Shown piece by piece: positions 10,445 through 52,782 of a stretch of DNA of 64,000 bases; positions within the stretch are counted from its first letter, which is position 1; every line of letters begins with the position of its first letter. Where the stretch lies: NCBI GenBank assembly GCA_019116485.1, contig DXBO01000027.1, positions 17,373 to 81,372 of the forward strand, written 5' to 3'. The notes beneath the pieces were generated by a model. That model saw only the letters and a program-made list of their open reading frames with translations, was not told the origin of the DNA and made no database searches. Position numbers and translations under genes: made by a program. The stretch is from Candidatus Gemmiger excrementavium. GTDB lineage: Bacteria; Bacillota; Clostridia; Oscillospirales; Ruminococcaceae.

Positions 10445-11272
10445 TCACCGGGCCCGCAGCTGCCAGAAAGCCACTGCCGCAGCCGCCGCCACATTGAGGG
10501 AGTCCACCCCATGCTGCATGGGGATCATTACGGTATGGTCGCACCGGGCGATGGTTTCGGCGTTCAGGCCGTCCCCCTCGGTGCCCAGCACCACGGCCAG
10601 CTTTTCCGGCTGCTGCAGGGCAGGGTCGTCCACGGCTTTGGCGCGGTCATCCAGTGCCATAGCCGCCGTGGCAAACCCCAGGGCGTGCAGCCGTGCCAGG
10701 CCCGCCGCGGGCCAGTCTTCTTTCACAGTTCCCAAGCGGGCCCAGGGCACCTGGAACATCGTACCCATACTGACCCGCACGGCCCGGCGGCACAGCGGGT
10801 CGCAGCAGGACGGCGACAGCAGCACGGCATCCATGCCCAGCGCCGCCGCCGAGCGGAAGATGGCGCCGATGTTGGTGGAATCCACAATGTTTTCCAGCAC
10901 GGCCACCCGGCGGGCGTTTTGGCAGATCTCCTCCGCCGTGCGGGGGGCCGGGCGGCCCATGGCGCAAAGCACGCCCCGGGTCAGGGTATAGCCGGTCAGC
11001 CGGGCCAGCACTTCCCGGTCCGCCGTGTACACCGGCACATCCGGGCAGCGGGCCAGTACCCCGGCAGCAGGCCCGTCCACCTGGCGGCGTTCCATCAAAA
11101 AGGACTCCGGCATCAGCCCGGCATCCAGCGCCGTGGCGATGACCTTGGGGCTCTCCACAATGATGCGCGCCTGTTCCGGGTGCAGGCGGCTGCGCAGCTG
11201 GTGGTCGGTCAGGCGGGTGTAGACGTCCAGTTCCGGGGCGGACAGGTCGGTGATCTCGATGACGTTGGGCAT
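10445..11272 (-). CDS. TrmH/SpoU-family RNA 2'-O-methyltransferase
   Basis: LENIVDSTNIGAIFRSAAALG, VVLGTEGDGL and IPMQHGVDSLNVAAAAAV are the SpoU motifs. ATG 11272 is preceded by AGGAGAG. Confidence 0.85.
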   Translation of the reverse strand: MPNVIEITDLSAPELDVYTRLTDHQLRSRLHPEQARIIVESPKVIATALDAGLMPESFLMERRQVDGPAAGVLARCPDVPVYTADREVLARLTGYTLTRGVLCAMGRPAPRTAEEICQNARRVAVLENIVDSTNIGAIFRSAAALGMDAVLLSPSCCDPLCRRAVRVSMGTMFQVPWARLGTVKEDWPAAGLARLHALGFATAAMALDDRAKAVDDPALQQPEKLAVVLGTEGDGLNAETIARCDHTVMIPMQHGVDSLNVAAAAAVAFWQLRAR

Positions 11273-23757: not shown

Positions 23758-23799
23758 AGAAAAAACGCCGCACCGCAGCATCTCTGCTGCGGTGCGGCT
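23758..23799 (-). terminator. Rho-independent terminator after tRNA-Pro
   Basis: Minus strand: GCCGCACCGCAGCA-GAGA-TGCTGCGGTGCGGC followed by GTTTTTTCT. Confidence 0.8.
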
Positions 23800-23808
23800 G
23801 TAGAAAAG

Positions 23809-23884
23809 TCCGGGTGACAGGATTCGAACCTGCGAAATCTCCTGGTCCCAAACCAGGCGCGATACCAAGCTTCGCCACACCCGG
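23809..23884 (-). tRNA. tRNA-Pro (anticodon UGG)
   Basis: Hand-folded cloverleaf: acceptor CCGGGTG/CACCCGG, D-arm GCGA-AGCTTGGTA-TCGC, anticodon arm CCTGG-TTTGGGA-CCAGG (UGG, G37), T-arm GCAGG-TTCGAAT-CCTGT. No encoded CCA. The variable region appears to be 7 nt. Confidence 0.85.
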
Positions 23885-23953: not shown

Positions 23954-25321
23954 TCAAATGCGGAATGCCGCCGCCTGGTACAGCGCCCCGTCCCGGGGGG
24001 CTTCCATCTGCAGCGCCACCCCGGGCCGGCCGGTGAGAGGGTCCACAATGCCCACCCATAAGGTATAGTCCCCTGCGGGCAGACGGGCAGTATCTTCCAG
24101 CGGCACCCGCAGAACATGGGTGCCCGGCCCCCAGCGGGAGAAGCTGCCTGCCGCCTGGCCGGACCAGACCGTATGGCCGCCGGTGTCCCGCAGTTCCAGC
24201 GCGATGGGCCAGTCGCCGTACAGCGGGGCCAGGCCGGTGTTCTGCCAGATCAGTTCCGCCTCCAGCTTGCCGCTGAGTACCCCGCGCAGTACCCGGCAGC
24301 CCCGTACCCCCAGGGTATAGCCCATCTCGGCCACAAAGGTCTGCAGGTTGTCCGCCGCCGTGCCGGTAAGTTCCCCGCTCTGGGGGGCGTTGGGGCCCAG
24401 AAAAGTGGAGTGGCTGCGGCGCAGCAGGTCCAGTGTGGTGGAAAACTGCCCCGCCGAGAAATACCACCCGCTTTCCTGCCGGGGGGAAAATTCGCCCCCG
24501 GAGGGTGCCCTGTACCAGAAGTCCGGCATGCCGGGCATCCACTCCCCGCTCTGGTCCGAGGTGTAGCCGTTTTCGATCCAGTCCAGCCACTCGTTGTGGG
24601 AATCCGGCAGGCCGAAGGAGTCATTGTACAGCCCCAGTCCCCGGTCCCGGGCCAGGGCGCAGGGGCGGCGCACCAGCAGGGTGTGGGCGTCGAACACATC
24701 CAGATAGTCCTGCACATAGCCGTCGGTGACTGACTGCGGCGGAAAAGGCTCGATGCCCGCATCGGTATCCACATGCCATTCGCCCCAGTGGCCCAGGCTG
24801 CCCAGTTCGACAAAGGCTACCTGGGGGTCGTCGGCATAGCGGGCCCCCAGCGCCGCCAGCAGCCGCCGGTGGGCCGCCTGCAGCACCGGGCTGGTGTAGT
24901 CGGGGCTGAAGCCCTGGCCGTAGTCCCCGTCGTACCAGGTGCCCGCGCCCTCCATCTCGTCGTAAAGCCACTGGGGCAGACCCAGGCGGGCTTGCTCGCC
25001 GGGGGTGTCCAGCACCAGGCGCAGCACCAGCCGCACGCCGTCGGCCCGCCAGCGGGCAAAGTGGCAGCGTTCTTCCAATGCTGCAAAGTCATACTGGCCC
25101 GGCCGGGGTTCCAGTTCATCCCAATAGACCGGGATATAGGCAAAAGCCACCAGCGGGTCCCGGCGGTAGTTCTCGCCCCAGGCCATAAACCCTTTCAGGG
25201 GGTTGGCAGCCGGTTTTTCCCCCGCCGGGATGACGGCATCCGCCAGGGTGAACCGGGCGCGCAGCAGCGCAGCCGCCAACAGCGCCAGGCCCAGCAGCAG
25301 CAACGGCAGCAGTTTTTTCAT
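23954..25321 (-). CDS. Secreted glycoside-hydrolase-like protein (DUF4874/DUF4832-type)
   Basis: 455 aa. Signal peptide MKKLLPLLLLGLALLAAALL. GSLGHWGEWH motif and TIM-barrel-like N-terminal half as I recall for DUF4832 proteins. GGAGGG RBS inside the upstream gene's end, 5-nt gap. Confidence 0.65.
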   Translation of the reverse strand: MKKLLPLLLLGLALLAAALLRARFTLADAVIPAGEKPAANPLKGFMAWGENYRRDPLVAFAYIPVYWDELEPRPGQYDFAALEERCHFARWRADGVRLVLRLVLDTPGEQARLGLPQWLYDEMEGAGTWYDGDYGQGFSPDYTSPVLQAAHRRLLAALGARYADDPQVAFVELGSLGHWGEWHVDTDAGIEPFPPQSVTDGYVQDYLDVFDAHTLLVRRPCALARDRGLGLYNDSFGLPDSHNEWLDWIENGYTSDQSGEWMPGMPDFWYRAPSGGEFSPRQESGWYFSAGQFSTTLDLLRRSHSTFLGPNAPQSGELTGTAADNLQTFVAEMGYTLGVRGCRVLRGVLSGKLEAELIWQNTGLAPLYGDWPIALELRDTGGHTVWSGQAAGSFSRWGPGTHVLRVPLEDTARLPAGDYTLWVGIVDPLTGRPGVALQMEAPRDGALYQAAAFRI

Positions 25322-25326
25322 GGGCG

Positions 25327-25998
25327 TCAGCCCTCCAGATTGCCGCGGTATTCCACCAGCGTCACGTCCTGCACGCCGTCGATGGTCTGCACCGCCTGGG
25401 TAACGTTGAGGTTGTCGGTCTTCAGGGTCAGTTCCATGGTCAGTTCGGTCAGATCCCCTTTGACCACCTTGGATCGGAAATGCCCGGTCTGGGCGCTGAG
25501 CGCCCGGCGGACCGCCTCTTCCACAGCCAGGTCGGAGCGGTAGGTGACGATAAGTACATAGGTGCCTGCCGCCCCCTTGAGGCGCTTGAGAAAAAACAGA
25601 GACAGCGCCACCGCCGCCCAGGCGATGAAGGCGATGGTGTAATACCGGGCGCCGATGGCGATACCTGAGGTGATGGCCCAGAACAAAAACATCAGGTCCA
25701 GGGGATTTTTGACGGCGGTACGGTAGCGCACGATGCTGAGCGCACCCACCATGCCCAGGGAGAGGGTGATATTGGTGCTGATGGTGATGATGATGACCGC
25801 CACCAGCACCGTCATGATGACCAGCGACAGGTTGAGGGCATGGTCGTACACCACCCCTACAAAGGCCCGCCGGTAGACCCAGAAGATGCCCATGCCCACC
25901 ACAAAGGCCACGGCCAGGGTCAGCACCAGGTCAAAGGCGTCGATCTGGGCGGGGAACAGTTCCAGGGCGGATTTTTTGAACAGGTCTTGAAACGTCAT
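25327..25998 (-). CDS. DUF4956-like membrane protein (4 TM helices plus a C-terminal soluble domain)
   Basis: ATG 25998 (MTFQDLFKK) is preceded by GGAGGA. SIVRYRTAVKNPLDLMFLFWAI core. The GTG at 26013 in the ORF track lies within the RBS and was rejected. Confidence 0.7.
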   Translation of the reverse strand: MTFQDLFKKSALELFPAQIDAFDLVLTLAVAFVVGMGIFWVYRRAFVGVVYDHALNLSLVIMTVLVAVIIITISTNITLSLGMVGALSIVRYRTAVKNPLDLMFLFWAITSGIAIGARYYTIAFIAWAAVALSLFFLKRLKGAAGTYVLIVTYRSDLAVEEAVRRALSAQTGHFRSKVVKGDLTELTMELTLKTDNLNVTQAVQTIDGVQDVTLVEYRGNLEG

Positions 25999-26025
25999 AC
26001 AAGATTCCTCCACAACGCAGCGCGT

Positions 26026-26724
26026 TCACCGCAGGATATGGTTCACCCGGTCCACACACAGGCAGAACTTGGATGCCGAGGTCCTGACGAAAGAATACGC
26101 GCTGAAGATACTTTGAATGTACTCCGGCAGAATGCCGGTATATTTGACCTCCAGGATCAGCCGCCCGGGGTCCAGCACATGGTAGGCCGGAGCGGCAGGG
26201 TCGAACAGGTCCTGCTGGGCCGTGATAGCACAGAGGTTGCGGTCAAAGGTGATGCGCACGGTGCCCACGTCGTTGACGAAGGCCTCCCGGTCATAAGCCA
26301 CTGTGACGCAAGGGCGCAGCACCGCGGCCCGGGCGTCCACATAAAACTGCGCGGCCAGCGGCTGGGGCTTGCCCAACAGAAAACCGCAGTCCCCTGCCAA
26401 AAAACGGTCATACTCGGCCCGGGTCAGGGGCACCGCCTGTTTGTGCACACAGGCGCCGTTTTTGTACTTGCATTCCAGGGCAATGTGGGCGTCGGAACCG
26501 TTGTAGATGCGCACCCGGTATTTTTTGCGTACCTGCACTCCCTCCAGCTTCTGGCGGTAGGCGGTGTGATAGAGGTCGTCCAGGTAAAGGCTGCGGATGT
26601 TGTACCCGCCCCCGGCTCCGGCGTGGGCATCGTACCCCATGACCGCCTGCAGCACGCTGCGCAGCTGGCGGTATTCCGCCATGGTCAGTAAGAATTTCAG
26701 TTCCTGACGGTAGGCTGGTTTCAT
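26026..26724 (-). CDS. VTC-domain (CYTH/triphosphate-tunnel, polyphosphate-polymerase-like) protein
   Basis: 232 aa, with no TM segment. N-terminal RQELKFLL and alternating basic/acidic beta-strand pattern (KYRVRIY, LECKYK, LEVKY) typical of tunnel-fold VTC/CYTH domains. The start overlaps the cotH stop by 1 nt (TGATG). Confidence 0.7.
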   Translation of the reverse strand: MKPAYRQELKFLLTMAEYRQLRSVLQAVMGYDAHAGAGGGYNIRSLYLDDLYHTAYRQKLEGVQVRKKYRVRIYNGSDAHIALECKYKNGACVHKQAVPLTRAEYDRFLAGDCGFLLGKPQPLAAQFYVDARAAVLRPCVTVAYDREAFVNDVGTVRITFDRNLCAITAQQDLFDPAAPAYHVLDPGRLILEVKYTGILPEYIQSIFSAYSFVRTSASKFCLCVDRVNHILR

Positions 26725-28472
26725 CAGGGCACCTCCGCCATATCCACACCGGGATAGTAGATATCCTGCACACAGATTTTGTTCATGGCCTGGGCCGTGC
26801 GGCCGTCCTGGGTCTGGGCCGTGACCCGGTAATACCAGGTGCCGGGGGGCACCAGGTCGGAAGGCGCCTGGTAGGCGGTGCTCTCCAGCCCGGCGGCGTC
26901 GATGACCGGCGCGGCCAGGTCGGGGGTGGCCCCCACCGTCAGGCGGTAGGTGATGGGCTGGTTGTCAAAGTCGTAGGCATCTTCCCAGCGGAAGGTGACG
27001 GTATCCCCTTCCCGCAGCGGCTCATACATAAAAAAGGGCATGAGTTCGTGCAGGCTCTGCTGGAACAGGTCATAAGCCTGCTGCAGCTGGTCTCCCAGCC
27101 CGGCCAGAATGGCATCCCGTTCCTCCGGCGTGTTGCCCAGATGGTACAGGTCCGGCATGGCCAGCACAAAGGGGCGTACCACCCCGTCGTAGTCCCGGGC
27201 CAGGGCATTGACGGTATCCGGGTTGATGGTCTGGTACAGTTCCTCCACCTTGTCGGCCAGCTGCTGGCGGTTGCCCGCGTCTTTGAGAAAGCGCTGGTGA
27301 AGCAGCACGCCCCAGTAGTTGGCCACCCCGTGTTCCCACCCGCCGTAGCTGGGGGTCAGGCCCTCCAGGTCGTCCTCCTGCCAGTGGAGGATGTTGTCGC
27401 CGTCCCAGGGGATGAAATACCACTTGTCACCGTTGAGGGGACTGTAGAGATAGAAATTCTGCACGGTGGTATCGCTGTTGCCGGTAAGGATGTTGTAGGC
27501 CAGCCAGGTCAGGTAGTTGTCCCGGTCTATGTAAGTGCCCACGATCTCGTTGATATCCACGCTTTTGTCGGCGATGCGGTTGACCAGGTCGATGAGTTTC
27601 TGGTTGTCCTGGCGTCCCTTGCAGCTGAGGATCGTCTCAAAGGCAGCCTCATCAAAAGCGGGATCATCGAAATTTTTGAGGGCGTCGGACATCTCGAAAT
27701 TGAAGCTGATGGCCTTGTACAGATACCCGGTCTGGTCCAGCCCATGGTTGGCCAGGTATTTTTTGGTGGGCACCTCGGCCTGGGTGAACAGGCCGTAGTC
27801 GCTGAAGGTGGTCTCCCCCGCTGTTTCGTCCTTGACATACAGGTGGACGAACTGGGTGCGCAGGCTGGAGATATCCGCCACCGGGCGCAGCAGGTCGAAG
27901 TAGAGTTTGTTGCGCAGGCGGGTGGCGTCAAAGGCGTGTTTGTTCAGGGCGATGTTGCTCTGTCCCCGCCACAGCCCGGCCTCGTCGTCCAGCGCCAGTT
28001 TGTAGGATTTCTGGGGCCGTACCGAGGAAGAGTTGCCCCGTACCCGGATGGTGGCGTTGGCGTGGTCCTGGCCGTAGCCCAGCATGCCGGGCAGCGGGCC
28101 GGTCTCGTCCCCCACCTGCACGATAGCCCGGGCGTAAATGTCGTTTTCCACATGGCTGTCCTCCACAAAGCGGACGGCGCTGTTCACCTCGGCAAAGCTG
28201 TGGTCGGTGTCGGAACCGGCGTCGCCCCGCTGTACCGTGACGTAAAAACAGACCACGCTCAACGGGTCATCGGCGCTGTAGACTGTCTTGTCCTCGGCCA
28301 TGCCCAGGGCATCAATGTCCCCGGCGGCCAGTTCGGCGGTGCCGGGGGAAACTTCCGGGGCAATACTTTCCGCCGGGTCGGCGGCGGGCCGCCACAGCAG
28401 CGCCGCCGCCAGGGCCAGCCCAACCGCAGCCACAAAGAATACAGCTTCCAGTTTATTGGTCATCTTCTTCAC
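26724..28472 (-). CDS. cotH: CotH-family atypical kinase-like protein, membrane-anchored, with a C-terminal FN3-like domain
   Basis: N-terminal anchor LEAVFFVAAVGLALAAALLW. The long central region is of the size and composition annotated as CotH in Firmicutes. C-terminus TVTFRWEDAYDFDNQPITYRL...WYYRVTAQTQDG is FN3-like. GTG 28472 lies 6 nt after AAAGGAGGA (alternative ATG 28463). Confidence 0.7.
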   Translation of the reverse strand: MKKMTNKLEAVFFVAAVGLALAAALLWRPAADPAESIAPEVSPGTAELAAGDIDALGMAEDKTVYSADDPLSVVCFYVTVQRGDAGSDTDHSFAEVNSAVRFVEDSHVENDIYARAIVQVGDETGPLPGMLGYGQDHANATIRVRGNSSSVRPQKSYKLALDDEAGLWRGQSNIALNKHAFDATRLRNKLYFDLLRPVADISSLRTQFVHLYVKDETAGETTFSDYGLFTQAEVPTKKYLANHGLDQTGYLYKAISFNFEMSDALKNFDDPAFDEAAFETILSCKGRQDNQKLIDLVNRIADKSVDINEIVGTYIDRDNYLTWLAYNILTGNSDTTVQNFYLYSPLNGDKWYFIPWDGDNILHWQEDDLEGLTPSYGGWEHGVANYWGVLLHQRFLKDAGNRQQLADKVEELYQTINPDTVNALARDYDGVVRPFVLAMPDLYHLGNTPEERDAILAGLGDQLQQAYDLFQQSLHELMPFFMYEPLREGDTVTFRWEDAYDFDNQPITYRLTVGATPDLAAPVIDAAGLESTAYQAPSDLVPPGTWYYRVTAQTQDGRTAQAMNKICVQDIYYPGVDMAEVP

Positions 28473-29937
28473 GCAGGGTCCTCCTTTGGGCGGATTCCCG
28501 CTCCGCACCGGCGAAGCGTTCCTGAATACGGCTGAGTACACCCTGCTGGGGCTGGGCAAACAGGGGTTGCTCACAGAACACATGGTATTCCAGCTCGTTG
28601 AGATAGCGGCGGATGCGCAGCATCAGGTACAGGGCCGTGGCCGCCCCCGCCAGCAGAAAGCCGATGCCCCACCAGCCGCTGTCCAGGGGCAGGGTGGCCA
28701 GTGAAAGCGCCGTGCTCAGCCCCAGGAACAGCGCGGATGCCCGCAGCGCCCCCCGGCGGTCATCAAAGTACAGCAGTATCACGGTGCCGCACTTGACAAA
28801 TCCGTACAGGCAGTAGCCGCAGCACAACAGCCGGTAGGTGCCGGCCATGCGCTCGTCCAGGCCCACGGTCTGCAAAAAATTGCCCACAAAAGTCACCGCC
28901 GCCACCGTGACGATGAGCTGGACCTCCATCATATGGGCCAGTTCGGTATACAGCACGGTACAAAGTTCCTGCTTGGCGGCGCGTATTTCCTCCAGACGGC
29001 CACCGTAGAGTACCGCGTCGAAGTAGGCCCGGTTTTTCACCTCGAACCGGGTCTCCAGCCCCACCACGAACTGCACCAGCATGGGCAGGATGGTCAGCGT
29101 GGCAAAAAAGCAGGGCACATCGTACCGGGTGCAGAACACCCCGGTGGGGTAGATTTTATCCCGGTAAGCACTGGCCCAGAACACAAAGTTGTGGGTATAC
29201 AGACCCAGGGCCAGGCACAGCCCGGTGGCCACCAGCACGCGGTAGCGTTCCAGCGCGGGAAAGAACACCAGCAAATCCCACCGGCCGGGGGGATAGTGGG
29301 CCAGCAGTTGGGCCATGTACAAAAACAGCATCAGCGTAAAGCCCAGAGCCGCCCCCCACAAAGCGCCGGGCAGCGGTGCCACCCCCAGCCCCAGCAGCAA
29401 TGCGGCCAGGCCCAGCGCCCCCGCTACCCCGGCCACAAAACCCAACAGCACATATTCGTACCGTTTGATGGCGGACAGAAAGGCGATCTGTATCCAAAGG
29501 ATGAGCAGCACGCAGAACAACGTGAGCACCGCGCCCCGCACCGCCCAGTCCACCGGCAGGGTGAGCAGGTAGAGCAGCGCTGCCGGGGCGCCTGCCGCCA
29601 ACAGAAAAAACACCACACCGAAAAAGGCGGGCAGCACGTCTTGCAAGCGCTCCTGGTAAATACAGTCCGAGATAAAACGGTTGACGAACAACAGCACCGT
29701 GTTGGACAGGATCAGAGAAAAGATCATGACATAGGTCATGAGGAAAAGGAACTCTTCCCGGGTGCGGTAGACCGCGCCGTCCCGGGCCATCAGGGCCCGC
29801 AGGGTCAGCAGCAATACGATCATGAGCACCATGGGGCCCTCGGTGACCACGGCGGTCAGGGAGTAGCCCCGCAGGGCGCCCAGCACGCTGTCACCGCCCC
29901 GGAATACCTTTTTTAAGGCAAAGCCGACGCCTGCCAT
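28453..29937 (-). CDS. pelG: Pel exopolysaccharide transporter PelG
   Basis: From MAGVGFALKKVFRGGDSVLGALRGYSLTAVVTEGPMVLMIV, the characteristic PelG N-terminus, with about 12 TM helices. The 120-codon Arg/Gly-rich upstream extension in the ORF track was rejected. Confidence 0.85.
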   Translation of the reverse strand: MAGVGFALKKVFRGGDSVLGALRGYSLTAVVTEGPMVLMIVLLLTLRALMARDGAVYRTREEFLFLMTYVMIFSLILSNTVLLFVNRFISDCIYQERLQDVLPAFFGVVFFLLAAGAPAALLYLLTLPVDWAVRGAVLTLFCVLLILWIQIAFLSAIKRYEYVLLGFVAGVAGALGLAALLLGLGVAPLPGALWGAALGFTLMLFLYMAQLLAHYPPGRWDLLVFFPALERYRVLVATGLCLALGLYTHNFVFWASAYRDKIYPTGVFCTRYDVPCFFATLTILPMLVQFVVGLETRFEVKNRAYFDAVLYGGRLEEIRAAKQELCTVLYTELAHMMEVQLIVTVAAVTFVGNFLQTVGLDERMAGTYRLLCCGYCLYGFVKCGTVILLYFDDRRGALRASALFLGLSTALSLATLPLDSGWWGIGFLLAGAATALYLMLRIRRYLNELEYHVFCEQPLFAQPQQGVLSRIQERFAGAERESAQRRTLREEDDQ

Positions 29938-31364
29938 GTGTGGTTCACCTCCCCGGTTTTGGGGGCGGCACCGCTGTACAAAGCGCGGTAGGCCGCCAGA
30001 AAATCTTCCACCTGGTAGCTGTGGGCCACCCGGCGGTAACCGTTTTGCCCCAGCGCCCGCATGTGGGCGGCGCTGCGGCCAATGTCCAGAATCCCTTCGG
30101 CCACCCGTTCCGGGTTCATCACCGGCACCACCACCCCCGCCGGTCCGAAATCGTCGCCCCCGCCGCAGATGATCTCCCGGCAGGCGCCCACGTTGGTGGC
30201 CAGCACCGGGCGGCGGGCGGCCATGGCTTCCAGCAGAACAAAGGGTTGTCCTTCCGAAATGCTGGTCAAAATCACCATGTCCAGCTGGGGCAGCCACTGG
30301 GTCACGTCAGCCCGGCCCACAAACTCGATATCCGGGCAGCCCAGCCGCTCGATGAGGGCCACACATTCCTCGTAATACCCAGGGTCTTCGTCACAGGGGC
30401 CGATGATGGTCAGCCGGGCGTCCCTGCGTTTGGCTTTGACCAGGTTGAAGGCATAGATCATGGTCTTGACATCCTTGATGGGCACCACCCGCAGCACCGC
30501 CCCGATATGCAGGGCGTGCTTACCCCGGGCGATGGGCGGCACCGCGGCAAAACGCTGCACGTCGATGCCGTTGGGGATGACCCGGCAGCGGTAGGCCTCG
30601 GCCCCCAGGCCGATCTGCAGGTCCCGCGCCCCCGAAAACAGCGACAATATCTGGTCGGCCTGGCTGTAGGCCGCCAGGCTCAGCGCCCGGAAGAAGTGAA
30701 TCCAGGTACGTTTGAAGTAGACAGGCACCCACTCTGCCTTGAGAATTTCCTCCTCCCGTTCCCGGGTATAGATGCCGTGTTCGGTGACAAAAAAGGGGTT
30801 GCCGGTGGCCCAGCGGAACCGCGCCCCCAGCAGCCCCGCATACCCGGTGGCCACCGCGTGGTAAAGGTCTGCTTCCGGCACAGGGCAGCGCAGCAGGTTC
30901 AGCGCCGGGATCAGCATGGAGCGCAGCGTCCAGAACAGGTCCTTGAAGGGCATGTGGCGTGCCTCCCCTTCGGCCAGGCGCTGCACGATGTGCAGGAACG
31001 CCGGAGAGGTAAGGAAATCGTTGGCGCTGCAGGGGTGTTCGCCCCCAAACAGGGCAAACAGCGCAGGCCAGTCCGGGTTGGCGCCCCGCAAAAGGTCCAG
31101 TACGGCGTTCTGCTGGGCAGGGGTCAGGCGCACGGCGGCGCCGGTGCCCGGGTGGGTCAGGTATTCATCCAGAAAATATTCCCGCAGTTCCCGCAGGTTG
31201 GGGGGCAACTCATATTTGTAGACGCCGCGCTGCTTCTGCTCGGCGCCGATGGAGACGATGATGAACTCGTGTTCAGGCATCCGGCGCATCAGCATCTGCA
31301 CCCAGGCAGACACGCCGCCCACCACATAGGGGTAACACCCTTCCACGATCAGGCAAATTCTCAT
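29913..31364 (-). CDS. pelF: Pel glycosyltransferase PelF (DUF3492 + GT4)
   Basis: MRICLIVEGCYPYVVGGVSAWV N-terminus and a GT4 C-terminal half (SISEGQPFVLLEAMA, an EX7E-type motif). 483 aa. Confidence 0.88.
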   Translation of the reverse strand: MRICLIVEGCYPYVVGGVSAWVQMLMRRMPEHEFIIVSIGAEQKQRGVYKYELPPNLRELREYFLDEYLTHPGTGAAVRLTPAQQNAVLDLLRGANPDWPALFALFGGEHPCSANDFLTSPAFLHIVQRLAEGEARHMPFKDLFWTLRSMLIPALNLLRCPVPEADLYHAVATGYAGLLGARFRWATGNPFFVTEHGIYTREREEEILKAEWVPVYFKRTWIHFFRALSLAAYSQADQILSLFSGARDLQIGLGAEAYRCRVIPNGIDVQRFAAVPPIARGKHALHIGAVLRVVPIKDVKTMIYAFNLVKAKRRDARLTIIGPCDEDPGYYEECVALIERLGCPDIEFVGRADVTQWLPQLDMVILTSISEGQPFVLLEAMAARRPVLATNVGACREIICGGGDDFGPAGVVVPVMNPERVAEGILDIGRSAAHMRALGQNGYRRVAHSYQVEDFLAAYRALYSGAAPKTGEVNHTWQASALP

Positions 31365-31365
31365 G

Positions 31366-33225
31366 CTACACCAGCTTTACTGTAAAATTGGGGCTTTTGA
31401 CGGTGAGAAGGTAGTACCCTTCCCCCTCGCCGCCGCTGATGCGCCGGATGGCGCAGTTTTCGTCCACCGCCCGGGGAGTGCGGTCGGTTTTCAGGTAGAA
31501 ACAGGTCTCGCCGCAGAAATTTTCGATGCTGCCGCGGATGGCGTCGGTACCGATCTCCAGATGGGGCTGCGCGGATTCCGCAATGCGCAGGGCGTCGGCA
31601 GCCTCGGTGGCAGAGAGGGACCGCAGGAAGGGAAAGTCCGTGTGGACTTGCTGCATCCAGGCGCAGTAACTGCGGTAGAGCTGCTCCCAGGTCTGGCCTT
31701 TGCCCCGCTCCAGGTCAAAAATATCGTCAGGATGGATAAAATGAGAGAAAACACCGTACAGCCCCAGGGCACTGTAGGCGGAAAGCTGTTCAAAGTCATC
31801 GGGGGCCATGCCCGCGGTGACCCGGGGAAATTCCACAACGCCGTCCGCCGCCAGGGAAAAGTCCTGCACATAGACTTCCCCTTCCTCCTCCTCGTTGGTG
31901 TAAATGCCGGAAATCACGCTGAGGTCCGGCAGGGCGGCGGCCACAGCCCGGCGGCCCTCGGCACTCAAGTAGTTGGAAGGCGGCACATAGCAGCGCAGCG
32001 CCACGCCGGGGAACAATTCCGCCGTGATTTCTCCCAGCCGCTGCAGTGAGGCGGTCATGGCCGCCTCGTCGGCCCAGGGGCGGTACTGCATAACAGCAGG
32101 GGTGCCCCCTGCCAGCGTCAGGGGCTGGTGGTTGTACCCGTGGGCGCCCATCTCGTAACCGTTTTTCAGCAGGCTGGCGCCGAAGTAGCGCTCGGTGGCG
32201 GATTCGGCATAGACCAGTTTATCGGGGATGACCTCGTTGTTGTAGGTGGCCACAAACAGCCCGGTGTAGATATCGCCGTAGGCTTTGGCTACCTGCAGCA
32301 TGTCGGGCCACCAGATGTCCCGGTAAAATTCCTTGGCGGAGCGGTTGTATTCCGCCCGCACCACGTCGCTTTCGCTCTCGTACTGGGGTGAGGGGAAATC
32401 GTCGATGAACAGGCACAGGGCGTTGATGACAGGGTAAAGGGTGGTGTCGAACAGCAGGTTGACGCACCCCGCCGCCATGCCGCGCCAGAAATCCCCGCTG
32501 CCGCAGGTGCAGTTGAACACCGCCACCCGGCCCTGGCCGCAGTCATACCGCCAGATCAGGGGGCTTTGGCGCCCGGCGGCATCCCGCCCCCAGGCATAGA
32601 CCACGGCATCCTCTTCCAGCGTGGCGGAAAGCATTACATCGGACAGGCTTTCCCCTGTAAAGCTGCGGCCGGTGATGCCGGGAACCACATCGCCGCAAAA
32701 TTCTATGGTGTCATAGGGCAGGTAGTCCCCATAGTCCGCAATACCGAAACTGCGGTAGCTCAGGGCAAACTGGGGGCCCAGGGATTCCGGCACCGTGCCC
32801 ACCAGCAGCCGGCCGCCTTCCGACACATAGCGCAGCAGCCGGGCGGCGGATTCGGTCATTTCGGCCTCCCAGTAGGCAGAGGCCAAAATCACCAGGTCAT
32901 AGTCGCTGTAGCTGACCGACTCGGTCCGGGACAGTTCCAGGGAATCCGCCCGGATGCGCAGATGCTGCAGGGCGATGCGCAGATTTTTTTCGTATTTGAC
33001 GGAGGCCTCATATCCGGGGCTGTACAGGATCAGCGCCCGGGGGCGGGTATCGCCGGTGACGGACAGGGCCGCCGCCGCGGGCTGGTCCAGCAGCGTGACC
33101 GAGGCCCGTACCCGGTCCCCGCCCCAGCGGCCCAGCTGCAGACCGTGGTTGCTCAACAGGATGAGCAGCGCCAGCCCCAGGCAGCCAGCCAGCAGCAGGG
33201 CCAGTTTTCTATAGGTCTTGTTCAC
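31366..33225 (-). CDS. pelA: DUF2194-type protein, the Gram-positive PelA deacetylase-like component (PelA_DA)
   Basis: Start taken at GTG 33225 (VNKTYRKLALLLAGCLGLALLIL, TM anchor; GAGGGA RBS). The C-terminal half has a polysaccharide-deacetylase-like region (GYEMGAHGYNHQPL, HFIHPDD). The upstream 176 codons in the ORF track are shadow-like. Confidence 0.72.
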   Translation of the reverse strand: MNKTYRKLALLLAGCLGLALLILLSNHGLQLGRWGGDRVRASVTLLDQPAAAALSVTGDTRPRALILYSPGYEASVKYEKNLRIALQHLRIRADSLELSRTESVSYSDYDLVILASAYWEAEMTESAARLLRYVSEGGRLLVGTVPESLGPQFALSYRSFGIADYGDYLPYDTIEFCGDVVPGITGRSFTGESLSDVMLSATLEEDAVVYAWGRDAAGRQSPLIWRYDCGQGRVAVFNCTCGSGDFWRGMAAGCVNLLFDTTLYPVINALCLFIDDFPSPQYESESDVVRAEYNRSAKEFYRDIWWPDMLQVAKAYGDIYTGLFVATYNNEVIPDKLVYAESATERYFGASLLKNGYEMGAHGYNHQPLTLAGGTPAVMQYRPWADEAAMTASLQRLGEITAELFPGVALRCYVPPSNYLSAEGRRAVAAALPDLSVISGIYTNEEEEGEVYVQDFSLAADGVVEFPRVTAGMAPDDFEQLSAYSALGLYGVFSHFIHPDDIFDLERGKGQTWEQLYRSYCAWMQQVHTDFPFLRSLSATEAADALRIAESAQPHLEIGTDAIRGSIENFCGETCFYLKTDRTPRAVDENCAIRRISGGEGEGYYLLTVKSPNFTVKLV

Positions 33226-34132
33226 TTGATCCCTCGTTTCTGAACGCCCGGACCAGGTCCAGGGTCTTGGTGGTAAGCAGCACGGGGCGTTGGGGCAGGG
33301 TGCCCAGGAACCCCTGCAGCCCCGCGGCGTCCCGCGCCTGGATATACAGTTCCAGCCTGTCCCGCACGGCCTGTTCGCTGTGGGGGTACAGGGCCAGGTA
33401 ACGCTCGCAAACCTGCCGGGCTTTGACCAGGTCCCCCTGCTGCAGTTCCAGCCGTACCCGATGGTGCAGATACCGGCTGCGGGGCTTTTTGTCCCGCAGC
33501 AGCCGCCCTGACAGCGCCCGGTAGCGGGCCGTATAGCGGCGGCGGCTGTAGGCGTCGTAGAGGTCGCAGGTGGCGGCACGGTAGAGCAGCTGTTCCCAGG
33601 CAGCCGCAGCATCGAGGTTGGCGGGGTCCCGCTGCCACCGGGTCTGGGCTGCTGCCAGCTGCTGCTGTACCTTGCGGCGCAGTTCCATGATAGCCACGCT
33701 GGCATAGTGGGAAGTTTCGCCGTCCTCATTGTCCAGGGCACGGCGCAGCACATCCAGGTAGGCCAGGGGGTCCTCGGCGTTGAGCAGTTCCATGACCAAG
33801 GCTCGGCGGTACTCTTTGTCTGAAAGGGTCAGCGCTTCGTCCATGGGGACCCGGTCAGCCTCCCGGGCAGTATCGGCCCGGTGCAGCCGGCGGGGATCAT
33901 CCCAGCGATAGTCCGCCCCCAGGCACAGCCCGGTGTAGCCGTCCCGCCGCCGCGCCGCAGCCGCGCTGTCACAAAACCAGACGAACAGCGGCCCCGCCAC
34001 CGGCAGCGCCAGTGATGCCGCCAGGCACAACGCCCCCTTGTGGGCACTGCCGGACCGCCGGGCCAGCACCCAGGCATAAAACCCGCAGAAAAACAGATAC
34101 AGTGCCAGCAGGGCACCCGTGATCCAGTTCAT
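33209..34132 (-). CDS. pelE: PelE-like protein (two N-terminal TM helices plus a helical-repeat domain)
   Basis: ATG 34132 forms an ATGA overlap with the pelD stop. MNWITGALLALYLFFCGFYAWVLA and a second TM helix, then an Arg/Leu/Ala-rich helical region. Assignment by position and architecture. Confidence 0.6.
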   Translation of the reverse strand: MNWITGALLALYLFFCGFYAWVLARRSGSAHKGALCLAASLALPVAGPLFVWFCDSAAAARRRDGYTGLCLGADYRWDDPRRLHRADTAREADRVPMDEALTLSDKEYRRALVMELLNAEDPLAYLDVLRRALDNEDGETSHYASVAIMELRRKVQQQLAAAQTRWQRDPANLDAAAAWEQLLYRAATCDLYDAYSRRRYTARYRALSGRLLRDKKPRSRYLHHRVRLELQQGDLVKARQVCERYLALYPHSEQAVRDRLELYIQARDAAGLQGFLGTLPQRPVLLTTKTLDLVRAFRNEGSSEQDL

Positions 34133-36264
34133 GAAGGCACGACCTCCCAGTGGAAACCTGCCCGGGCGAACCGGACAGCCAGTTCCTCCGCCTGTTCGGG
34201 CGGGGTGTTGGTCAGGATGACGGCGTACCCGCCGGTCTCGTCCTGCCCCATGTAATCCGTCTTGCGGATCATGCCGCCCAGGGCCCGGCCCACGGCGGCG
34301 GCATCCAGCCCGGCAGGGGGCTGCACCCGGCCCAGTGTAAAGCGGCACAGAGCCCGGCCCCCTTCGCCCCGCAGCAAGGCCAGCTTTTCGGCAAAGGCTT
34401 CCGGTTTGAGCAGGGCGGTGCCGGCCACGCAGCGCTCGGACCGGCGGGCCTTTTCATAGGAAAGGGCCCGCAACAGGTTTTTTTCCAGCAAACTGACCAC
34501 CACCCGGAACAGGTCCTGGTAGTAGGTGGTGAACTTGTCCGGCGCGATGTCGTAAGCCGCCACAAAGGCGTAGGGCTGGCCGTCGTACCACACAGGGGCA
34601 GCCAGGTCGGGATGGTCGGCCAGCAGGCCGGTGTTGACGAACAGGCCCCCCCGGCGGAACGCCAGCCGCAGCCGTTCCAGTTCCGCCAGGCCCAGGACGG
34701 CAGGGGCGCTGCCCTCCAGCGCCGGGGAACAGGTCAGCAGCCGGGCGCAGCCCGCCGGCACATCCACATAGTAGACAGCGGCTTTTTCACATTCCAGCAC
34801 CTGCTGCACCACCCCGATCCCCCGCTGCAGCAGCTGTTCCGGCTGCTGCGCGTCCAGTTCCAGCACGATGCGGTACAGGTCCCCGAAGCTGTGTTTGGTG
34901 TTGAGCAGCTGTTGCTGCAGCCGGTTTTTCAGGTCCTGGGTCTCGGTCTGCAGGGCTTCCACCCGGCGGTATTTCTCCTCCAGCAGGTCGTAGCGGCGGC
35001 GCAGGGCGTCGGTGTCTTCCCGCCGGCGGTTGACGATGTACCCCAGTACCGACCCGGTGACGGCATACACTACAAAGGGCAGCCAGGTGTCCACGCTGTA
35101 GAGCAGGTAGGCGGTGTCCACATAGGAGGCCGCCAGACTGTACAGGTAGGAGAGGCTGGCCAGCACCACGGCCAGCACCCCCATCTCACCGCCGTAGCAG
35201 CAGGCGGTCAGGGCCACAAACATCAGCCGGATGTCCACATATTTCAGGTCGGACACATCCTTGCCGAAACGCAGCAGCAGCGATGTGGCCGCAAAGAGCA
35301 GCAGCGTCTCCCCCAGCGTGCGCAGCGGTGCGTGCCGGGCCAGCCAGGCGCGCAGCCGGGCCAGCGGGACCCGGACGGGCCGGGGTGCACCGGAGGGGGC
35401 CGACGCAGGCATTGCCAGGGCCCGGCCCAGTGTATCGGCCCCGTCCTGCGCAAAAAGATGGGTCGGTATCCAGCCGGTGGCCAGCTGCAAAGGGCGCGGG
35501 TCAAAGTCCCCGGGGGGCAGTGTGGGGCGCTGTGCCTGCCAGGTCACGTCCGGTTCGCACCCGGCGACCCGGCCCAGGCAGGCAAAGTATTCTGCCAGCG
35601 GCACAGGATGCCCTGTCACCACCAGGTAACGGCCCGCCGCCCGGACCAGGACCAGGTCATACAGTGCTGCGGCGGCGTCCTCGGCATGGATGACATCCAC
35701 GCAGTCCCCGGCACTGCAGGGGCAGGTCACCGGTTCTCCCCGTGCCATGCGGGCCAGCAGGGCGCCGGTGTAGCCCATATCCCCCGGCGGCACCGGTGCG
35801 TACACATAGCCCAGCCGGGCGATGAGCAGCGGCAGGCCGAAATGGCTCTGGTGAGCCTGGCAGTACAGTTCCCCGGCAGCCAGGTCGGCCTGCAGCGGGG
35901 TCAGCGCCCCGCCGTACCCCAGTTCCACCGAGGACAGGTAGACAAAGGTCTGCACCCGATGTTCCCGCAGGGCCTCCAGCAGGGCAGCCAGCGCGGGGAT
36001 GCAGCTCTCATAAGCGGCGCCGGGGGCATTTTCCCGCAGGGCCCCGGTCAGAAACACCACTGTATCGATACGGTTGGATGTAAGTATCGGGGCGATCTGC
36101 TGTGCCCCAAAGGTTCCGCGGTAAATGCTGCCCCGCAGCCGCGGGTGCCACAGGGCACGCTGGTCTTCCCCGGTGATCCAGCAGGCGGTGTGCCCCTCGC
36201 TCAGAAAGCGATTGGCCAGGTAAGCGCCGGCCAGGTCCCACCTGCCCATGAACAAGACATTCAT
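34129..36264 (-). CDS. pelD: PelD-like c-di-GMP receptor: degenerate SDR domain, TM helices, GAF-like region and degenerate GGDEF with an intact RxxD site
   Basis: 711 aa. The N-terminus resembles epimerases but has GRWDLAG in place of GxxGxxG and YCQAH in place of YxxxK. 4 TM helices in the middle. C-terminal RKTD-YMGQ-DETGGY-AVIL aligns to RxxD-x4-GGDEF-AVIL. GGAGGAGAGGG RBS. Confidence 0.75.
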   Translation of the reverse strand: MNVLFMGRWDLAGAYLANRFLSEGHTACWITGEDQRALWHPRLRGSIYRGTFGAQQIAPILTSNRIDTVVFLTGALRENAPGAAYESCIPALAALLEALREHRVQTFVYLSSVELGYGGALTPLQADLAAGELYCQAHQSHFGLPLLIARLGYVYAPVPPGDMGYTGALLARMARGEPVTCPCSAGDCVDVIHAEDAAAALYDLVLVRAAGRYLVVTGHPVPLAEYFACLGRVAGCEPDVTWQAQRPTLPPGDFDPRPLQLATGWIPTHLFAQDGADTLGRALAMPASAPSGAPRPVRVPLARLRAWLARHAPLRTLGETLLLFAATSLLLRFGKDVSDLKYVDIRLMFVALTACCYGGEMGVLAVVLASLSYLYSLAASYVDTAYLLYSVDTWLPFVVYAVTGSVLGYIVNRRREDTDALRRRYDLLEEKYRRVEALQTETQDLKNRLQQQLLNTKHSFGDLYRIVLELDAQQPEQLLQRGIGVVQQVLECEKAAVYYVDVPAGCARLLTCSPALEGSAPAVLGLAELERLRLAFRRGGLFVNTGLLADHPDLAAPVWYDGQPYAFVAAYDIAPDKFTTYYQDLFRVVVSLLEKNLLRALSYEKARRSERCVAGTALLKPEAFAEKLALLRGEGGRALCRFTLGRVQPPAGLDAAAVGRALGGMIRKTDYMGQDETGGYAVILTNTPPEQAEELAVRFARAGFHWEVVPS

Positions 36265-39550: not shown

Positions 39551-40420
39551 TCAGCCGTCCTTGCGGATAAAATGGGTCTGGCGGTAGGTCCGGGGCGCCA
39601 CGCCGTACACCGACTTGAACGCCCGGGAAAAATGCAGTTGGTTGGCATAGCTGACCATGCTGCTGATGGTGCCGATGGGCAGCGCCGTTTCCTTGAGCAT
39701 CTGGGCGGCCCGGGCCATGCGGTAGTGCAGCAGAAAGGCCTGGGGGCTCTCCCCCATGGTATCCCGGAACAATTTGCTGAAATAGCTTCGGTTCAGCCCG
39801 CAGAAGGCCGCGATCTCCTCGATGGAGACATCCCGCTGGAAATTCTGCTCAATAAAGGACAGGGCTTCCTTCATATAAAAGTCCCGCAGCCGCCGGGGAC
39901 TCTGCCGCCGGGGCGCCGCCGATGACTGCACCAGCTGGTCCAGAAACAGAAACGCCTGGCCGATCTGGCGCACCGGGCTGTCCTGGGGATGGTTGACGAT
40001 GTACAGCATCTGTTCCTGCAGGCGCAGGCCCGCTTCCCGGTTCTGGGGGGTGTACAGGGGCTGGTCCCCGCTGATGCCCGCCAGGCTCAGGCTTTCATTT
40101 ACCCGCAGGCCGTCCAGTTCGATCCAGGTATACTCCCAAGGGTCGGCGGCGTCCGCCACATAGGTGGTGGTCTGCCCCGGCACGATCAGGAAACCATGAC
40201 CCGCCGTGATGCGGTAACTGGTCTCGTTGGCGTAAAGGGTGCCGCTTCCGGTGATCACATAGTGGAACAGATAGTGGTCACGTTTGTGGGGCCCGTAGGA
40301 GTGCAGGGGTTCGGTGCGTTCCCAGCCATACTGGTACAGGTTCAGGTCTACAAACCGCTCATCCTGGAAAACATGGAACTTGAGTTTGTTCTCTGTTTTG
40401 ACATCATCCTGCCGCTGCAT
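39551..40420 (-). CDS. AraC-family regulator (cupin sensor + HTH), MsmR-like, divergent from the sugar operon
   Basis: From MQRQDDVKTE (ATG 40420, GGGGGAGG RBS). C-terminal IEEIAAFCGLNRSYFSKLFRD...HFSRAFKSVYGVAPRTYR. Confidence 0.85.
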   Translation of the reverse strand: MQRQDDVKTENKLKFHVFQDERFVDLNLYQYGWERTEPLHSYGPHKRDHYLFHYVITGSGTLYANETSYRITAGHGFLIVPGQTTTYVADAADPWEYTWIELDGLRVNESLSLAGISGDQPLYTPQNREAGLRLQEQMLYIVNHPQDSPVRQIGQAFLFLDQLVQSSAAPRRQSPRRLRDFYMKEALSFIEQNFQRDVSIEEIAAFCGLNRSYFSKLFRDTMGESPQAFLLHYRMARAAQMLKETALPIGTISSMVSYANQLHFSRAFKSVYGVAPRTYRQTHFIRKDG

Positions 40421-40529
40421 GGCACAACCTCCCCCGCTGTTTTTTCTATTATATACCATAATGTGTCCCAACTTCAACATTTTACATAGAAAAACTATAA
40501 ATTGAGATATAAAAAATCCTGCCAAGATA

Positions 40530-40558
40530 TTCACGATTCGTTAGCTAAATTGTATAAT
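40530..40558 (+). promoter_or_regulatory. SigA-type promoter of the msm-like operon
   Basis: TTCACG(40530-40535)-17 nt-TATAAT(40553-40558), in an AT-rich gap. Confidence 0.5.
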
Positions 40559-51040: not shown

Positions 51041-51078
51041 AAGGTGTCCTTTCCGCCTCTGACCACACCGCGCGGCGG

Positions 51079-52782
51079 TCATCGGCATTCGCTTTCTACA
51101 CAGGTTGTCAGGGTCACGGTGCCGGCGGGGATGGCATACCGCACGGCGGGGATCACAGTGTTGGGGGTGTACAGGCTGGTGTTGGGCCATGCATCGACGA
51201 TACAGCCGGTGCCCCCCTGCCCGGTGACGGTGCAGGAAAGGGCCGCGTTCTGTGCCCGGGCTGTCTCGCCGTCCGCGGCAGCGGCAAAGCCCGCACAGAA
51301 CTTGGGGACGGCAAAACCGCAGTCGTAGGCGGTGCAGGCGATGCTGCTCTGCACCGTATGGCGGCGGATATGGCCCTTGCCCTGGGGGATCAGTTCGGTG
51401 ACTACCGTGATGCCCGCAAAGGGGGACCATTTGCTGATGAGACGGTCACCCCACAGCTGGAAGCTTTCGCTGTGGCGGCGGATAAAGACATAGCCGTCGA
51501 TAACGAAAGCCAGCATGCTGTCCGGCGCAGCCTGTTCCAGCTGCACATTGCTGCGGGAGGCCGAAAAACCGAACCGGGTGTTGTAGACGAACTTGCCGTA
51601 TTTCTCGCTGAACTGGCCGTGTTCGCTGCATTCCACCTCAGCGGGGGCGTAGGCGTTGACCTGGCCGTCCGGCAGACGCTGGAACAACAGGTCGGCACTC
51701 TTCATGGCATAGAGAGCGGGCAGCGGGGGCAGCGGCGCCGCCGGGACGGACCAGAAGGGGTGGCCTTCCGGCAGGGCCAGCACCAGGAAGGTTTTCATGC
51801 CCCAGTAGGGGCTGCCGGGGGAGTTGTATTTTTCGCTCATGTAAAGCTGGGGATAGCAATACCCGATGGTGAGCACACCGTCCCGGTCAAAGATGGGGCG
51901 CTGGCACCACCATTGCAGGTTGCGCACGATGATGCCCTTCATCACGTCCAGGGGCAGCGGTTCCAGCCCGGCAAATACACAGGCCGAATAAAAAGCGCAC
52001 TGGCCGAACCGGTAACCCAGACTGCGGCCATAGGGCAGCGCGGCGCCGTTTTCGTCGAACCAGAAGGCAAACTCTTTGCCAAATTCCAGGGCACGTTTAC
52101 GGAATTTCTCCGCCCGGGCGGGGTCGCGCCCCGCGGCAAAAACGCTGTACAGCACCCCGTAGTACTGGATGGCCCAGGGGATGTAGTAATCCCGCTGGGG
52201 TTTGACGTCGGGTGTACCGTCGGTGTACCAGCCGCTGCCCACGTACCAGCTGTCCACCTCGTCCAGGTCGTGGTACATTCGCTCCAGGTCGCAGGGCATG
52301 CCCACGGCGTCCAGGCCCAGGTTGACCAGCACCCGGAAAAACAGCCAGTTGCAATGGGGCAGTTCGTGGTGGTTGATGGTATCCAGCCAGCGGGCCAGAT
52401 TTTTCTTCTGTTCCCCGGTCAAGGGGTCCCATACGATCTGGGGCACTTCCAGCAAGGCACAGCCAATGGCGGCCATCTCCACAAAGAGCTGGTCATAGTC
52501 CCCGGGGTCGCCCCAGTATTCGGGGTTTTGGGGATCGCTGCCGGCGGCCAGGCCCTTGCGGTAGATGGCGGCAAAGTCCTCGTCCACACCGCCGCCCATC
52601 CAGTAGGGGGCCAGCCCCCACAGCGGGCGGGAAAATCCTTCCATACCGATGGTGCGGGGCGGGTAGCTTACGCCGGTATCCCCCAGCTGCAGCAGCGCCT
52701 TTTGCGGGGAATAGAGCGGCTTGAGGGGGTCCAGCATGCGCCGCAGCAAAGCGGCAAAATCCTGACGGGTCTGCAGTTCCAT
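51079..52782 (-). CDS. DUF2264-domain protein
   Basis: About 567 aa. N-terminal LRRMLDPLKPLYSP...GFSRPLWGLAP is typical of DUF2264. ATG 52782 lies 6 nt after AAGGGGTG. Confidence 0.7.
   Translation of the reverse strand: MELQTRQDFAALLRRMLDPLKPLYSPQKALLQLGDTGVSYPPRTIGMEGFSRPLWGLAPYWMGGGVDEDFAAIYRKGLAAGSDPQNPEYWGDPGDYDQLFVEMAAIGCALLEVPQIVWDPLTGEQKKNLARWLDTINHHELPHCNWLFFRVLVNLGLDAVGMPCDLERMYHDLDEVDSWYVGSGWYTDGTPDVKPQRDYYIPWAIQYYGVLYSVFAAGRDPARAEKFRKRALEFGKEFAFWFDENGAALPYGRSLGYRFGQCAFYSACVFAGLEPLPLDVMKGIIVRNLQWWCQRPIFDRDGVLTIGYCYPQLYMSEKYNSPGSPYWGMKTFLVLALPEGHPFWSVPAAPLPPLPALYAMKSADLLFQRLPDGQVNAYAPAEVECSEHGQFSEKYGKFVYNTRFGFSASRSNVQLEQAAPDSMLAFVIDGYVFIRRHSESFQLWGDRLISKWSPFAGITVVTELIPQGKGHIRRHTVQSSIACTAYDCGFAVPKFCAGFAAAADGETARAQNAALSCTVTGQGGTGCIVDAWPNTSLYTPNTVIPAVRYAIPAGTVTLTTCVESECR

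Follow-up and report, generated by a model that had tools for sequence, protein, structure and literature searches.

Two descriptions of the genes that accompany some Pel polysaccharide operons have been published. Whitfield 2020 reported an accessory block of cotH, a 'poly-phosphate polymerase' gene, DUF4956 and DUF4832, which is contiguous with pelDEA(DA)FG in streptococci and clostridia and correlated with the epimerase-type PelD. A 2024 Streptococcus intermedius preprint assigned SIR_1591-1594 to a secreted CotH kinase that has an FN3 domain, a glycoside hydrolase, a polymerase that is VTC-like and has catalytic residues, and a four-helix, MgtC-like membrane protein with an ACT domain. It noted that the polyphosphate of the polymerase 'may remain in the cytoplasm', and reported that the trio of kinase, polymerase and membrane protein was not found outside pel operons. 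Beyond Whitfield 2020 and this preprint, we found no open-access paper on the trio. In this study, we analysed the cotH-VTC-DUF4956 trio in a 64,000-nucleotide stretch of the gut bacterium Candidatus Gemmiger excrementavium (contig DXBO01000027.1, positions 17,373 to 81,372; hereafter the window). The window has the same gene content and order as the published Pel accessory block, the epimerase-type PelD included, and the gene arrangement itself is therefore already published. We believe that the trio is a unit that occurs well beyond Pel, and we put the probability at roughly 40% that it is a self-contained cassette which makes polyphosphate at the membrane and exports the polymer.

Gene order inside and outside Pel loci

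A scan of 185,579 species genomes gave 439 VTC loci, and the closest 80 of the 439 were compared for gene order. These 80 loci came from Clostridia, streptococci, bifidobacteria and Coriobacteriia, and all of them had the order pelD...G-cotH-VTC-DUF4956(-DUF4832) wherever the flanks allowed it to be read. In the first set, 87 of the 88 assessable loci had DUF4956 on the strand of VTC as its immediate downstream neighbour; the exception was Collinsella ihumii (locus L022), where an intact VTC gene is followed by the first 42 amino acids of DUF4956 at 10745-10870. DUF4956 directly followed VTC in 78 of the 80 metagenome loci as well, and the two exceptions were a contig end and a truncated VTC fragment. 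Locus L172 encodes VTC residues 6-150 alone at 711-1142, with no DUF4956. The degenerate copies of L022 and L172 may be pseudogenes or assembly breaks. Overall, the order VTC then DUF4956 was seen in about 165 loci from Bacillota and Actinomycetota, and the two genes form an essentially obligate pair. CotH was adjacent in every metagenome locus whose flanks each extended over 2 kb or more.

The trio is also found in loci of other kinds. In the 80 metagenome loci, 28 were of the Pel type, 25 had the order VTC-DUF4956-CotH without Pel, and 13 had CotH-VTC-DUF4956 with no Pel seen. The CotH proteins of non-Pel loci are too divergent for a single-sequence phmmer search with the window CotH and were found by profile and Pfam. 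For example, the Pseudobutyrivibrio plasmid pNP95 carries CotH-VTC-DUF4956 inside a polysaccharide locus with glycosyltransferases (GT) of families GT2, GT4 and GT61, an acyl-transferase and a pyruvyl-transferase, and Nonomuraea has VTC-DUF4956-CotH. A very large 'phosphodiester glycosidase family protein' is encoded in the same polysaccharide locus of pNP95 (locus L081, 1-2228). A Planococcus plasmid (L082) has the layout VTC-DUF4956-CotH-X-HEAT-GT, and in the metagenome locus L103 this layout ends with a chitin-synthase-like GT2.

The same layout is found in NELoc-2, the necrotic-enteritis pathogenicity locus of Clostridium perfringens (CP4_0460-0468, PMC2879425), which encodes VTC, a membrane protein of about 225 amino acids, CotH, a protein of about 685 amino acids, a HEAT-repeat protein and a chitin-synthase-like GT2. 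Unlike the window, NELoc-2 has a different polysaccharide synthase and no pel genes. The membrane proteins after each of its VTC genes (226 and 222 amino acids) were called 'tubulin/FtsZ GTPase' in the 2010 annotation (PMC2879425); judged from size, position and membrane prediction, they are very likely DUF4956 proteins.

Three further loci place the trio beside a CcsA-like GT2-PilZ synthase with MBOAT/AlgX-like genes or glycoside hydrolase (GH) genes of family GH5 (L109, 9992-18142; L112, 9986-16476; L127, 8311-16456), and we assign them to Ccs-type cellulose loci. The paper describing the Ccs-type cellulose system contains none of the terms 'spore coat', 'kinase' and 'polyphosphate', and an association of the trio with Ccs cellulose was not found in the searchable literature. 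In another group, the VTC protein is 360-620 amino acids long and begins with a disordered, basic extension that has no Pfam match (L090, 4940-10212; L142, 6981-11417; L163, 3311-7673; L092). The long VTC gene of L090, L142 and L163 lies between DUF4956 and the gene of a CotH protein of about 1000 amino acids, whose domain order LTD-LTD-CHB_HEX_C-Fn3_assoc-CotH was confirmed by Pfam in L090 and L142. The next gene downstream encodes a metallo-beta-lactamase-fold protein (L090, L092) or an ABC exporter (L142, L163, in each of which one neighbour was scanned and was the exporter). The identifiable flanking genes of L090 encode an AddAB-type helicase-nuclease, rubredoxin and a flavoprotein, with no polysaccharide gene among them.

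These results indicate that the trio moves as a unit between at least five genomic contexts in two phyla and is clearly not Pel-specific, contrary to the 2024 preprint. As far as the literature could be searched, its independence of Pel and its links to loci of the cellulose and NELoc-2 types seem to be new. One could suppose that the three genes are chance neighbours, or an annotation artefact, without a joint function, and the sole oddity in favour of this is a database cluster that mixes CotH and VTC proteins: the 582-amino-acid 'member' of the 90%-identity cluster of the window VTC is the neighbouring CotH protein, a clustering artefact and no fusion. The recurrence of the trio in about 165 loci and at least five contexts, with the order from VTC to DUF4956 fixed, refutes this explanation. 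The preliminary description of the window had also proposed that an exported polyanion would be a natural partner of the cationic Pel polymer. This rationale fits the Pel and the chitin-synthase/deacetylase contexts, but not the cellulose-type or L090-type loci, and it is weakened because the trio also stands beside cellulose-synthase-like loci or where no polysaccharide genes are seen.

The VTC protein and its proposed membrane partner

The identities and positions that the preliminary description had given to CotH, VTC and DUF4956 were borne out by a check with Pfam hidden Markov models, in which all three proteins scored above the cutoffs of their families (PF08757, 23.8 bits; PF09359, 23 bits; PF16316, 30.6 bits; Table 1). 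The VTC protein covers positions 2-232 of the 235 in its profile. No SPX regulatory domain was found in its 232 amino acids, for which Pfam gives the VTC domain alone, and it is a soluble protein without a hydrophobic or membrane segment (maximum KD19 1.06), as had been described. The AlphaFold2 (AF2) model, with a predicted local distance difference test (pLDDT) score of 92, is a closed beta-barrel with the triphosphate-tunnel fold. When the model was compared with the Protein Data Bank (PDB) by Foldseek, the best matches were the Vtc4 structures 3g3r/3g3q (E 1.7e-13, TM about 0.71), and the tunnel enzymes YgiF, CyaB-like proteins and thiamine-triphosphatase ranked below Vtc4 and the VTC complexes. 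A phmmer search of the single VTC sequence against the PDB gave no match, and a profile built from 55 diverse bacterial VTC homologues reached Vtc4 with E 1.7e-11.

The alignment of this profile with Vtc4 pairs K10 with K200, R70/R72 with R264/R266 and E192 with E426, and further K86 with K281, Y144/R146 with Y359/R361, R157 with R373, and S218/K219 with S457/K458. Eight of these residues (K10, R70, R72, Y144, R146, R157, E192 and K219) are invariant in the 55 homologues, and K86 and S218 are conserved in at least 90%. Vtc4 K200 reportedly has a catalytic role. The tunnel-fold catalytic residues on which the preliminary description depended are thus in place, with K10, R70, R72 and E192 intact in a Vtc4-like model. 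The equivalents of three of them are altered in the published mutant R264A/R266A/E426N, which inactivates yeast VTC. Judged by sequence and model, the VTC protein resembles an active enzyme of the Vtc4 type.

The VTC protein could instead be no polymerase but a tripolyphosphatase, a nucleotide triphosphatase or a cyclase-like enzyme; the ACT-like domain of DUF4956 would then sense or handle its product or substrate. Triphosphatases and CyaB-type cyclases share the tunnel fold and are also among the Foldseek matches, and strand beta-1 of the bacterial VTC proteins has an invariant Glu (E8) where Vtc4 has Thr, within an R-x-E-x-K motif that is nearer to the hydrolase-type ExExK. We consider a non-polymerase quite improbable, because no other structures match nearly as well as those of Vtc4, the Pfam family is VTC, and the Vtc4 residues required for polymerisation are all invariant.

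For DUF4956, the preliminary description gave four transmembrane segments and a C-terminal soluble domain. The AF2 model (pLDDT 68) has five membrane-region helices instead (residues 21-46, 53-72, 77-94, 99-116 and 120-140), and the soluble domain was recovered as an ACT-like beta-alpha-beta domain at residues 145-217, with Foldseek matches to ACT domains. In these comparisons, a profile search of the PDB gave noise, and Foldseek matched the ACT-like part alone. Pel-linked DUF4956 members share 60-83% identity. Across 28 broad members, which include other contexts, the core VGALS-x-x-R-x-R-x-x-x-K-x-x-x-D (R91, R93, K97, D101) is invariant, as are N76, F106, G112 and G116. The distribution of basic residues among the loops suggests a cytoplasmic orientation for both the ACT-like domain and the R-x-R...K site. 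By analogy, R91, R93 and K97 may echo the basic residues lining the yeast VTC channel.

With its size, about five helices and a subsequent ACT-like, presumably cytoplasmic domain, DUF4956 has a layout similar to that of MgtC/SapB proteins. This layout bears on a second explanation, in which polyphosphate stays in the cytoplasm as a local phosphate or energy buffer, or as a regulator in polysaccharide production. DUF4956 would serve as an MgtC-like membrane anchor or regulator with a metabolite-sensing ACT-like domain, and CotH would work independently outside with another phosphate donor. That the polyphosphate may stay in the cytoplasm is the only published opinion, given for the streptococcal orthologues, for which the MgtC family was assigned, and this opinion speaks against export. 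The MgtC/SapB profile (PF02308) gave a weak match to DUF4956 at equivalent helices (E 0.31; 11.8 bits, below the cutoff of 31.4), and DUF4956 also has partners other than VTC. The published assignment to MgtC found no support here, since the Pfam match is below threshold and hhalign against Escherichia coli YhiD gave a probability of 0.4%. Cytoplasmic retention also leaves unexplained why a cytoplasmic enzyme has an obligate membrane partner and why an outward-facing kinase is invariably present in every context. We hold it to be doubtful, yet the main rival of synthesis with export.

Two DUF4956 genes were seen next to other partners. On pSymA of Sinorhizobium meliloti (L089, 5266-8627), DUF4956 directly follows a gene for a caspase-like Peptidase_C14 and lies beside one for a NAGPA phosphodiester glycosidase, and on a Hymenobacter plasmid (L088, 8929-11012) it is ahead of a TolC-family gene. 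The NAGPA of Sinorhizobium and the phosphodiester glycosidase of pNP95 are hints of sugar-phosphodiester chemistry near these genes.

The CotH kinase and the proposed export

Studies of Bacillus CotH have described a spore-coat Ser/Thr kinase, and the window CotH belongs to the same Pfam family. It aligns to Bacillus cereus CotH (5jd9) with E 3.9e-13, and its D334 and D357 are the counterparts of Asp228 and Asp251, the catalytic residues in Bacillus subtilis CotH. When non-Pel sequences are included, D334 is conserved in 77, D357 in 78 and K155 in 78 of 79 sequences. Unlike Bacillus CotH, the window protein stands outside a sporulation context and has an N-terminal signal peptide or membrane anchor as well as extra C- or N-terminal domains. 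The preliminary description had proposed an N-terminal anchor and a C-terminal FN3-like domain. A single hydrophobic segment at residues 3-28 agrees with the first, either as a signal peptide or as an anchor; for the second, Pfam gave no FN3 match in the C-terminus even at E<=10, and the only source of this domain is the published AF2 model of the streptococcal orthologue (2024 S. intermedius preprint). Long CotH variants bear the glycan-binding-type domains LTD, CHB_HEX_C and Fn3_assoc. CotH is predicted to face outward. A further difference from Bacillus CotH is that an extracellular kinase, as this one is predicted to be, brings its phosphate donor into question.

We propose that the soluble VTC protein, as an active tunnel enzyme, would polymerise polyphosphate from ATP at the cytoplasmic face of the membrane. 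It would work on or with DUF4956, because the two genes are almost always adjacent and in the window belong to one tightly packed operon. The Arg-x-Arg...Lys site and the ACT-like domain of DUF4956 would take up the polymer chain and then pass it, or present it, across the membrane, and the outward-facing CotH would then act with or on the exported polyphosphate. The targets that CotH modifies may be the growing polysaccharide or a protein of the surface or matrix; alternatively, it may do no more than leave polyphosphate in the matrix. The fixed VTC-DUF4956 pair together with a constant outward kinase suggests that the three proteins share one membrane-spanning job. Since passage of a polymer is the simplest link between a cytoplasmic polymerase and an external enzyme, we favoured synthesis with export. 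We infer the synthesis of polyphosphate, the physical coupling of VTC to DUF4956, the translocation and the link from CotH to polyphosphate; an action of CotH on the exported chain, or together with it, goes one step beyond export and is less certain.

In a more specific form of this step, the exported polyphosphate would be the phosphoryl donor of the outward-facing CotH kinase, or the group that it transfers. CotH would then phosphorylate exopolysaccharides (Pel, cellulose-like or chitin-like) or surface and matrix proteins. Polyphosphate as the donor would explain how the kinase can work on the outer side of Gram-positive cells, to which no ATP is supplied. We regard the donor role itself as unlikely.

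The comparison with the yeast Vtc4/Vtc3/Vtc1 complex shows how far the likeness goes. Both systems have the same Pfam VTC domain, the same tunnel fold and equivalents of K200, R264, R266 and E426, and in both the enzyme is obligately tied to a small multi-helix membrane protein with conserved basic residues. In contrast to yeast VTC, the catalytic and membrane parts in the window are separate genes, there is no SPX domain, and the CotH kinase is a fixed third member. The yeast membrane domain has three helices, whereas DUF4956 has about five helices and an ACT-like domain and no detectable relation to it.

Several observations weigh against synthesis with export, apart from the Glu on beta-1 and the published opinion mentioned above. 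DUF4956 showed no sequence or fold similarity to the membrane domain of Vtc1/3/4, and its model is only moderate in confidence and has no obvious pore. DUF4956 also exists without VTC or CotH, so the family is no dedicated polyphosphate channel. No natural VTC-DUF4956 fusion was found among the top 150 of 9322 VTC relatives; the long matches (360-620 amino acids) for this check came from a search of 1.84 billion proteins, and their extra N-terminal regions are the disordered, basic and Pfam-less extensions mentioned above, not DUF4956. The pairwise identities of CotH, VTC and DUF4956 co-vary (r of about 0.95 over 125 loci), which fits inheritance as a cassette and may come from shared ancestry as much as from functional coupling. 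Finally, the literature searched gave no experimentally defined function of the trio, in line with the preliminary description. One further long VTC match was a chimera with trigger factor and was rejected as a VTC-DUF4956 fusion.

The preliminary description had regarded the VTC and DUF4956 genes as a possible split analogue of eukaryotic VTC. The near-obligate pairing of the genes upholds this idea in part; the missing similarity between DUF4956 and the VTC membrane domain, the occurrence of DUF4956 without VTC and the lack of fusions speak against it. Without any detectable likeness between DUF4956 and the membrane domain of VTC, the pair can be called an analogue of VTC at most, but no split homologue. 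A split VTC is thus a plausible but unproven idea, and the idea of export by such a system is absent from the searchable literature.

The operon in the window and its meaning

Between 36264 and 23954, the minus strand carries a head-to-tail series of nine genes. By their Pfam identities and junctions, they form a single tightly packed operon (Table 1), in which a contiguous pelD(epimerase)-E-A(DA)-F-G is joined by the four accessory genes cotH, VTC, DUF4956 and DUF4832. PelD had no GAF or GGDEF match in Pfam at E<=0.01, and its domain set of Epimerase and DUF4118 fits the published epimerase-type PelD that accompanies the accessory genes. CotH most likely starts at the GTG at 28472, with a AAGGAGGA ribosome-binding site 7 nt upstream. 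Its stop codon overlaps the ATG of VTC by 1 nt (TGATG). The most likely start of DUF4956 is the ATG at 25998, 27 nt past the VTC stop and with a GGAGGA site 8 nt upstream, and DUF4832 begins 5 nt past DUF4956. The DUF4832 protein has an N-terminal hydrophobic segment at residues 1-27. The preliminary description had missed both that DUF4832 belongs to the accessory block of the trio and that this gene set was already published.

Table 1. Genes and other features of the pel operon region (positions in the window)
Feature	Coordinates	Strand	Basis
PelD with N-terminal NAD-epimerase-like domain	34129..36264	(-)	Pfam Epimerase + DUF4118
PelE-like TPR membrane protein	33209..34132	(-)	weak TPR_14 match and place in the pelDEAFG order
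PelA deacetylase-like protein (DUF2194), GTG start	31366..33225	(-)	Pfam DUF2194, E 1.5e-111
pelF (GT4 glycosyltransferase)	29913..31364	(-)	Pfam DUF3492 + Glycos_transf_1; NCBI name of the identical protein is PelF
pelG	28453..29937	(-)	Pfam PelG, E 7.9e-112
CotH-family kinase, 582 aa	26724..28472	(-)	Pfam CotH, 192.4 bits, E 1.9e-56
Soluble VTC (triphosphate-tunnel) domain protein, 232 aa, putative polyphosphate polymerase	26026..26724	(-)	Pfam VTC, 120.7 bits, E 9.5e-35
DUF4956 membrane protein, 223 aa	25327..25998 (open reading frame 25327-26013)	(-)	Pfam DUF4956, 36.2 bits, E 6e-9
DUF4832 / TIM-barrel glycoside-hydrolase-like secreted protein, last operon gene	23954..25321	(-)	Pfam DUF4832, E 7e-11, and weak GH42
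tRNA-Pro (TGG anticodon), own promoter-like site	23808-23884	(-)	directly after the last gene of the operon
Terminator, 14-bp stem, strong	23767-23798	(-)	after tRNA-Pro

In NCBI, proteins identical to those of the window are recorded for Candidatus Gemmiger excrementavium / uncultured Subdoligranulum and are named 'polyphosphate polymerase domain-containing protein', 'DUF4956 domain-containing protein' and 'PelF'. NCBIfam and PADLOC gave no match for the CotH, VTC or DUF4956 of the window, and a reading of the trio as a defence system was dropped. Upstream of the pel operon, where the window coordinates are higher, there are genes for an AraC-family regulator (39551-40534) and a GH2 beta-galactosidase (48251-51430). 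An AraC-family regulator is also ahead of the non-Pel trio in L103 (7937-8857), which may be coincidence.

The established part of this study is the comparative genomics of the cassette alone, and it is partly new with respect to the open literature that could be searched. If synthesis with export is true, no bacterial counterpart of the eukaryotic VTC machine would precede the trio, whose membrane partner would be an unrelated one and whose polyphosphate synthase would lie outside the PPK1/PPK2 families. If polyphosphate also serves as the donor of CotH, there would be a PPK-independent route to extracellular polyphosphate. An August 2026 preprint described that the Bacillus cereus group has extracellular polyphosphate which does not depend on PPK and whose origin is unknown, and stated that a Vtc4 homologue is absent from this group. 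The function of the cassette could also answer how secreted CotH-family kinases obtain their phosphate donor. The cassette stands at Pel, cellulose-type and chitin-synthase-type loci and is part of C. perfringens NELoc-2, so a defined function would bear on the chemistry of the biofilm matrix of gut and oral commensals and of pathogens.

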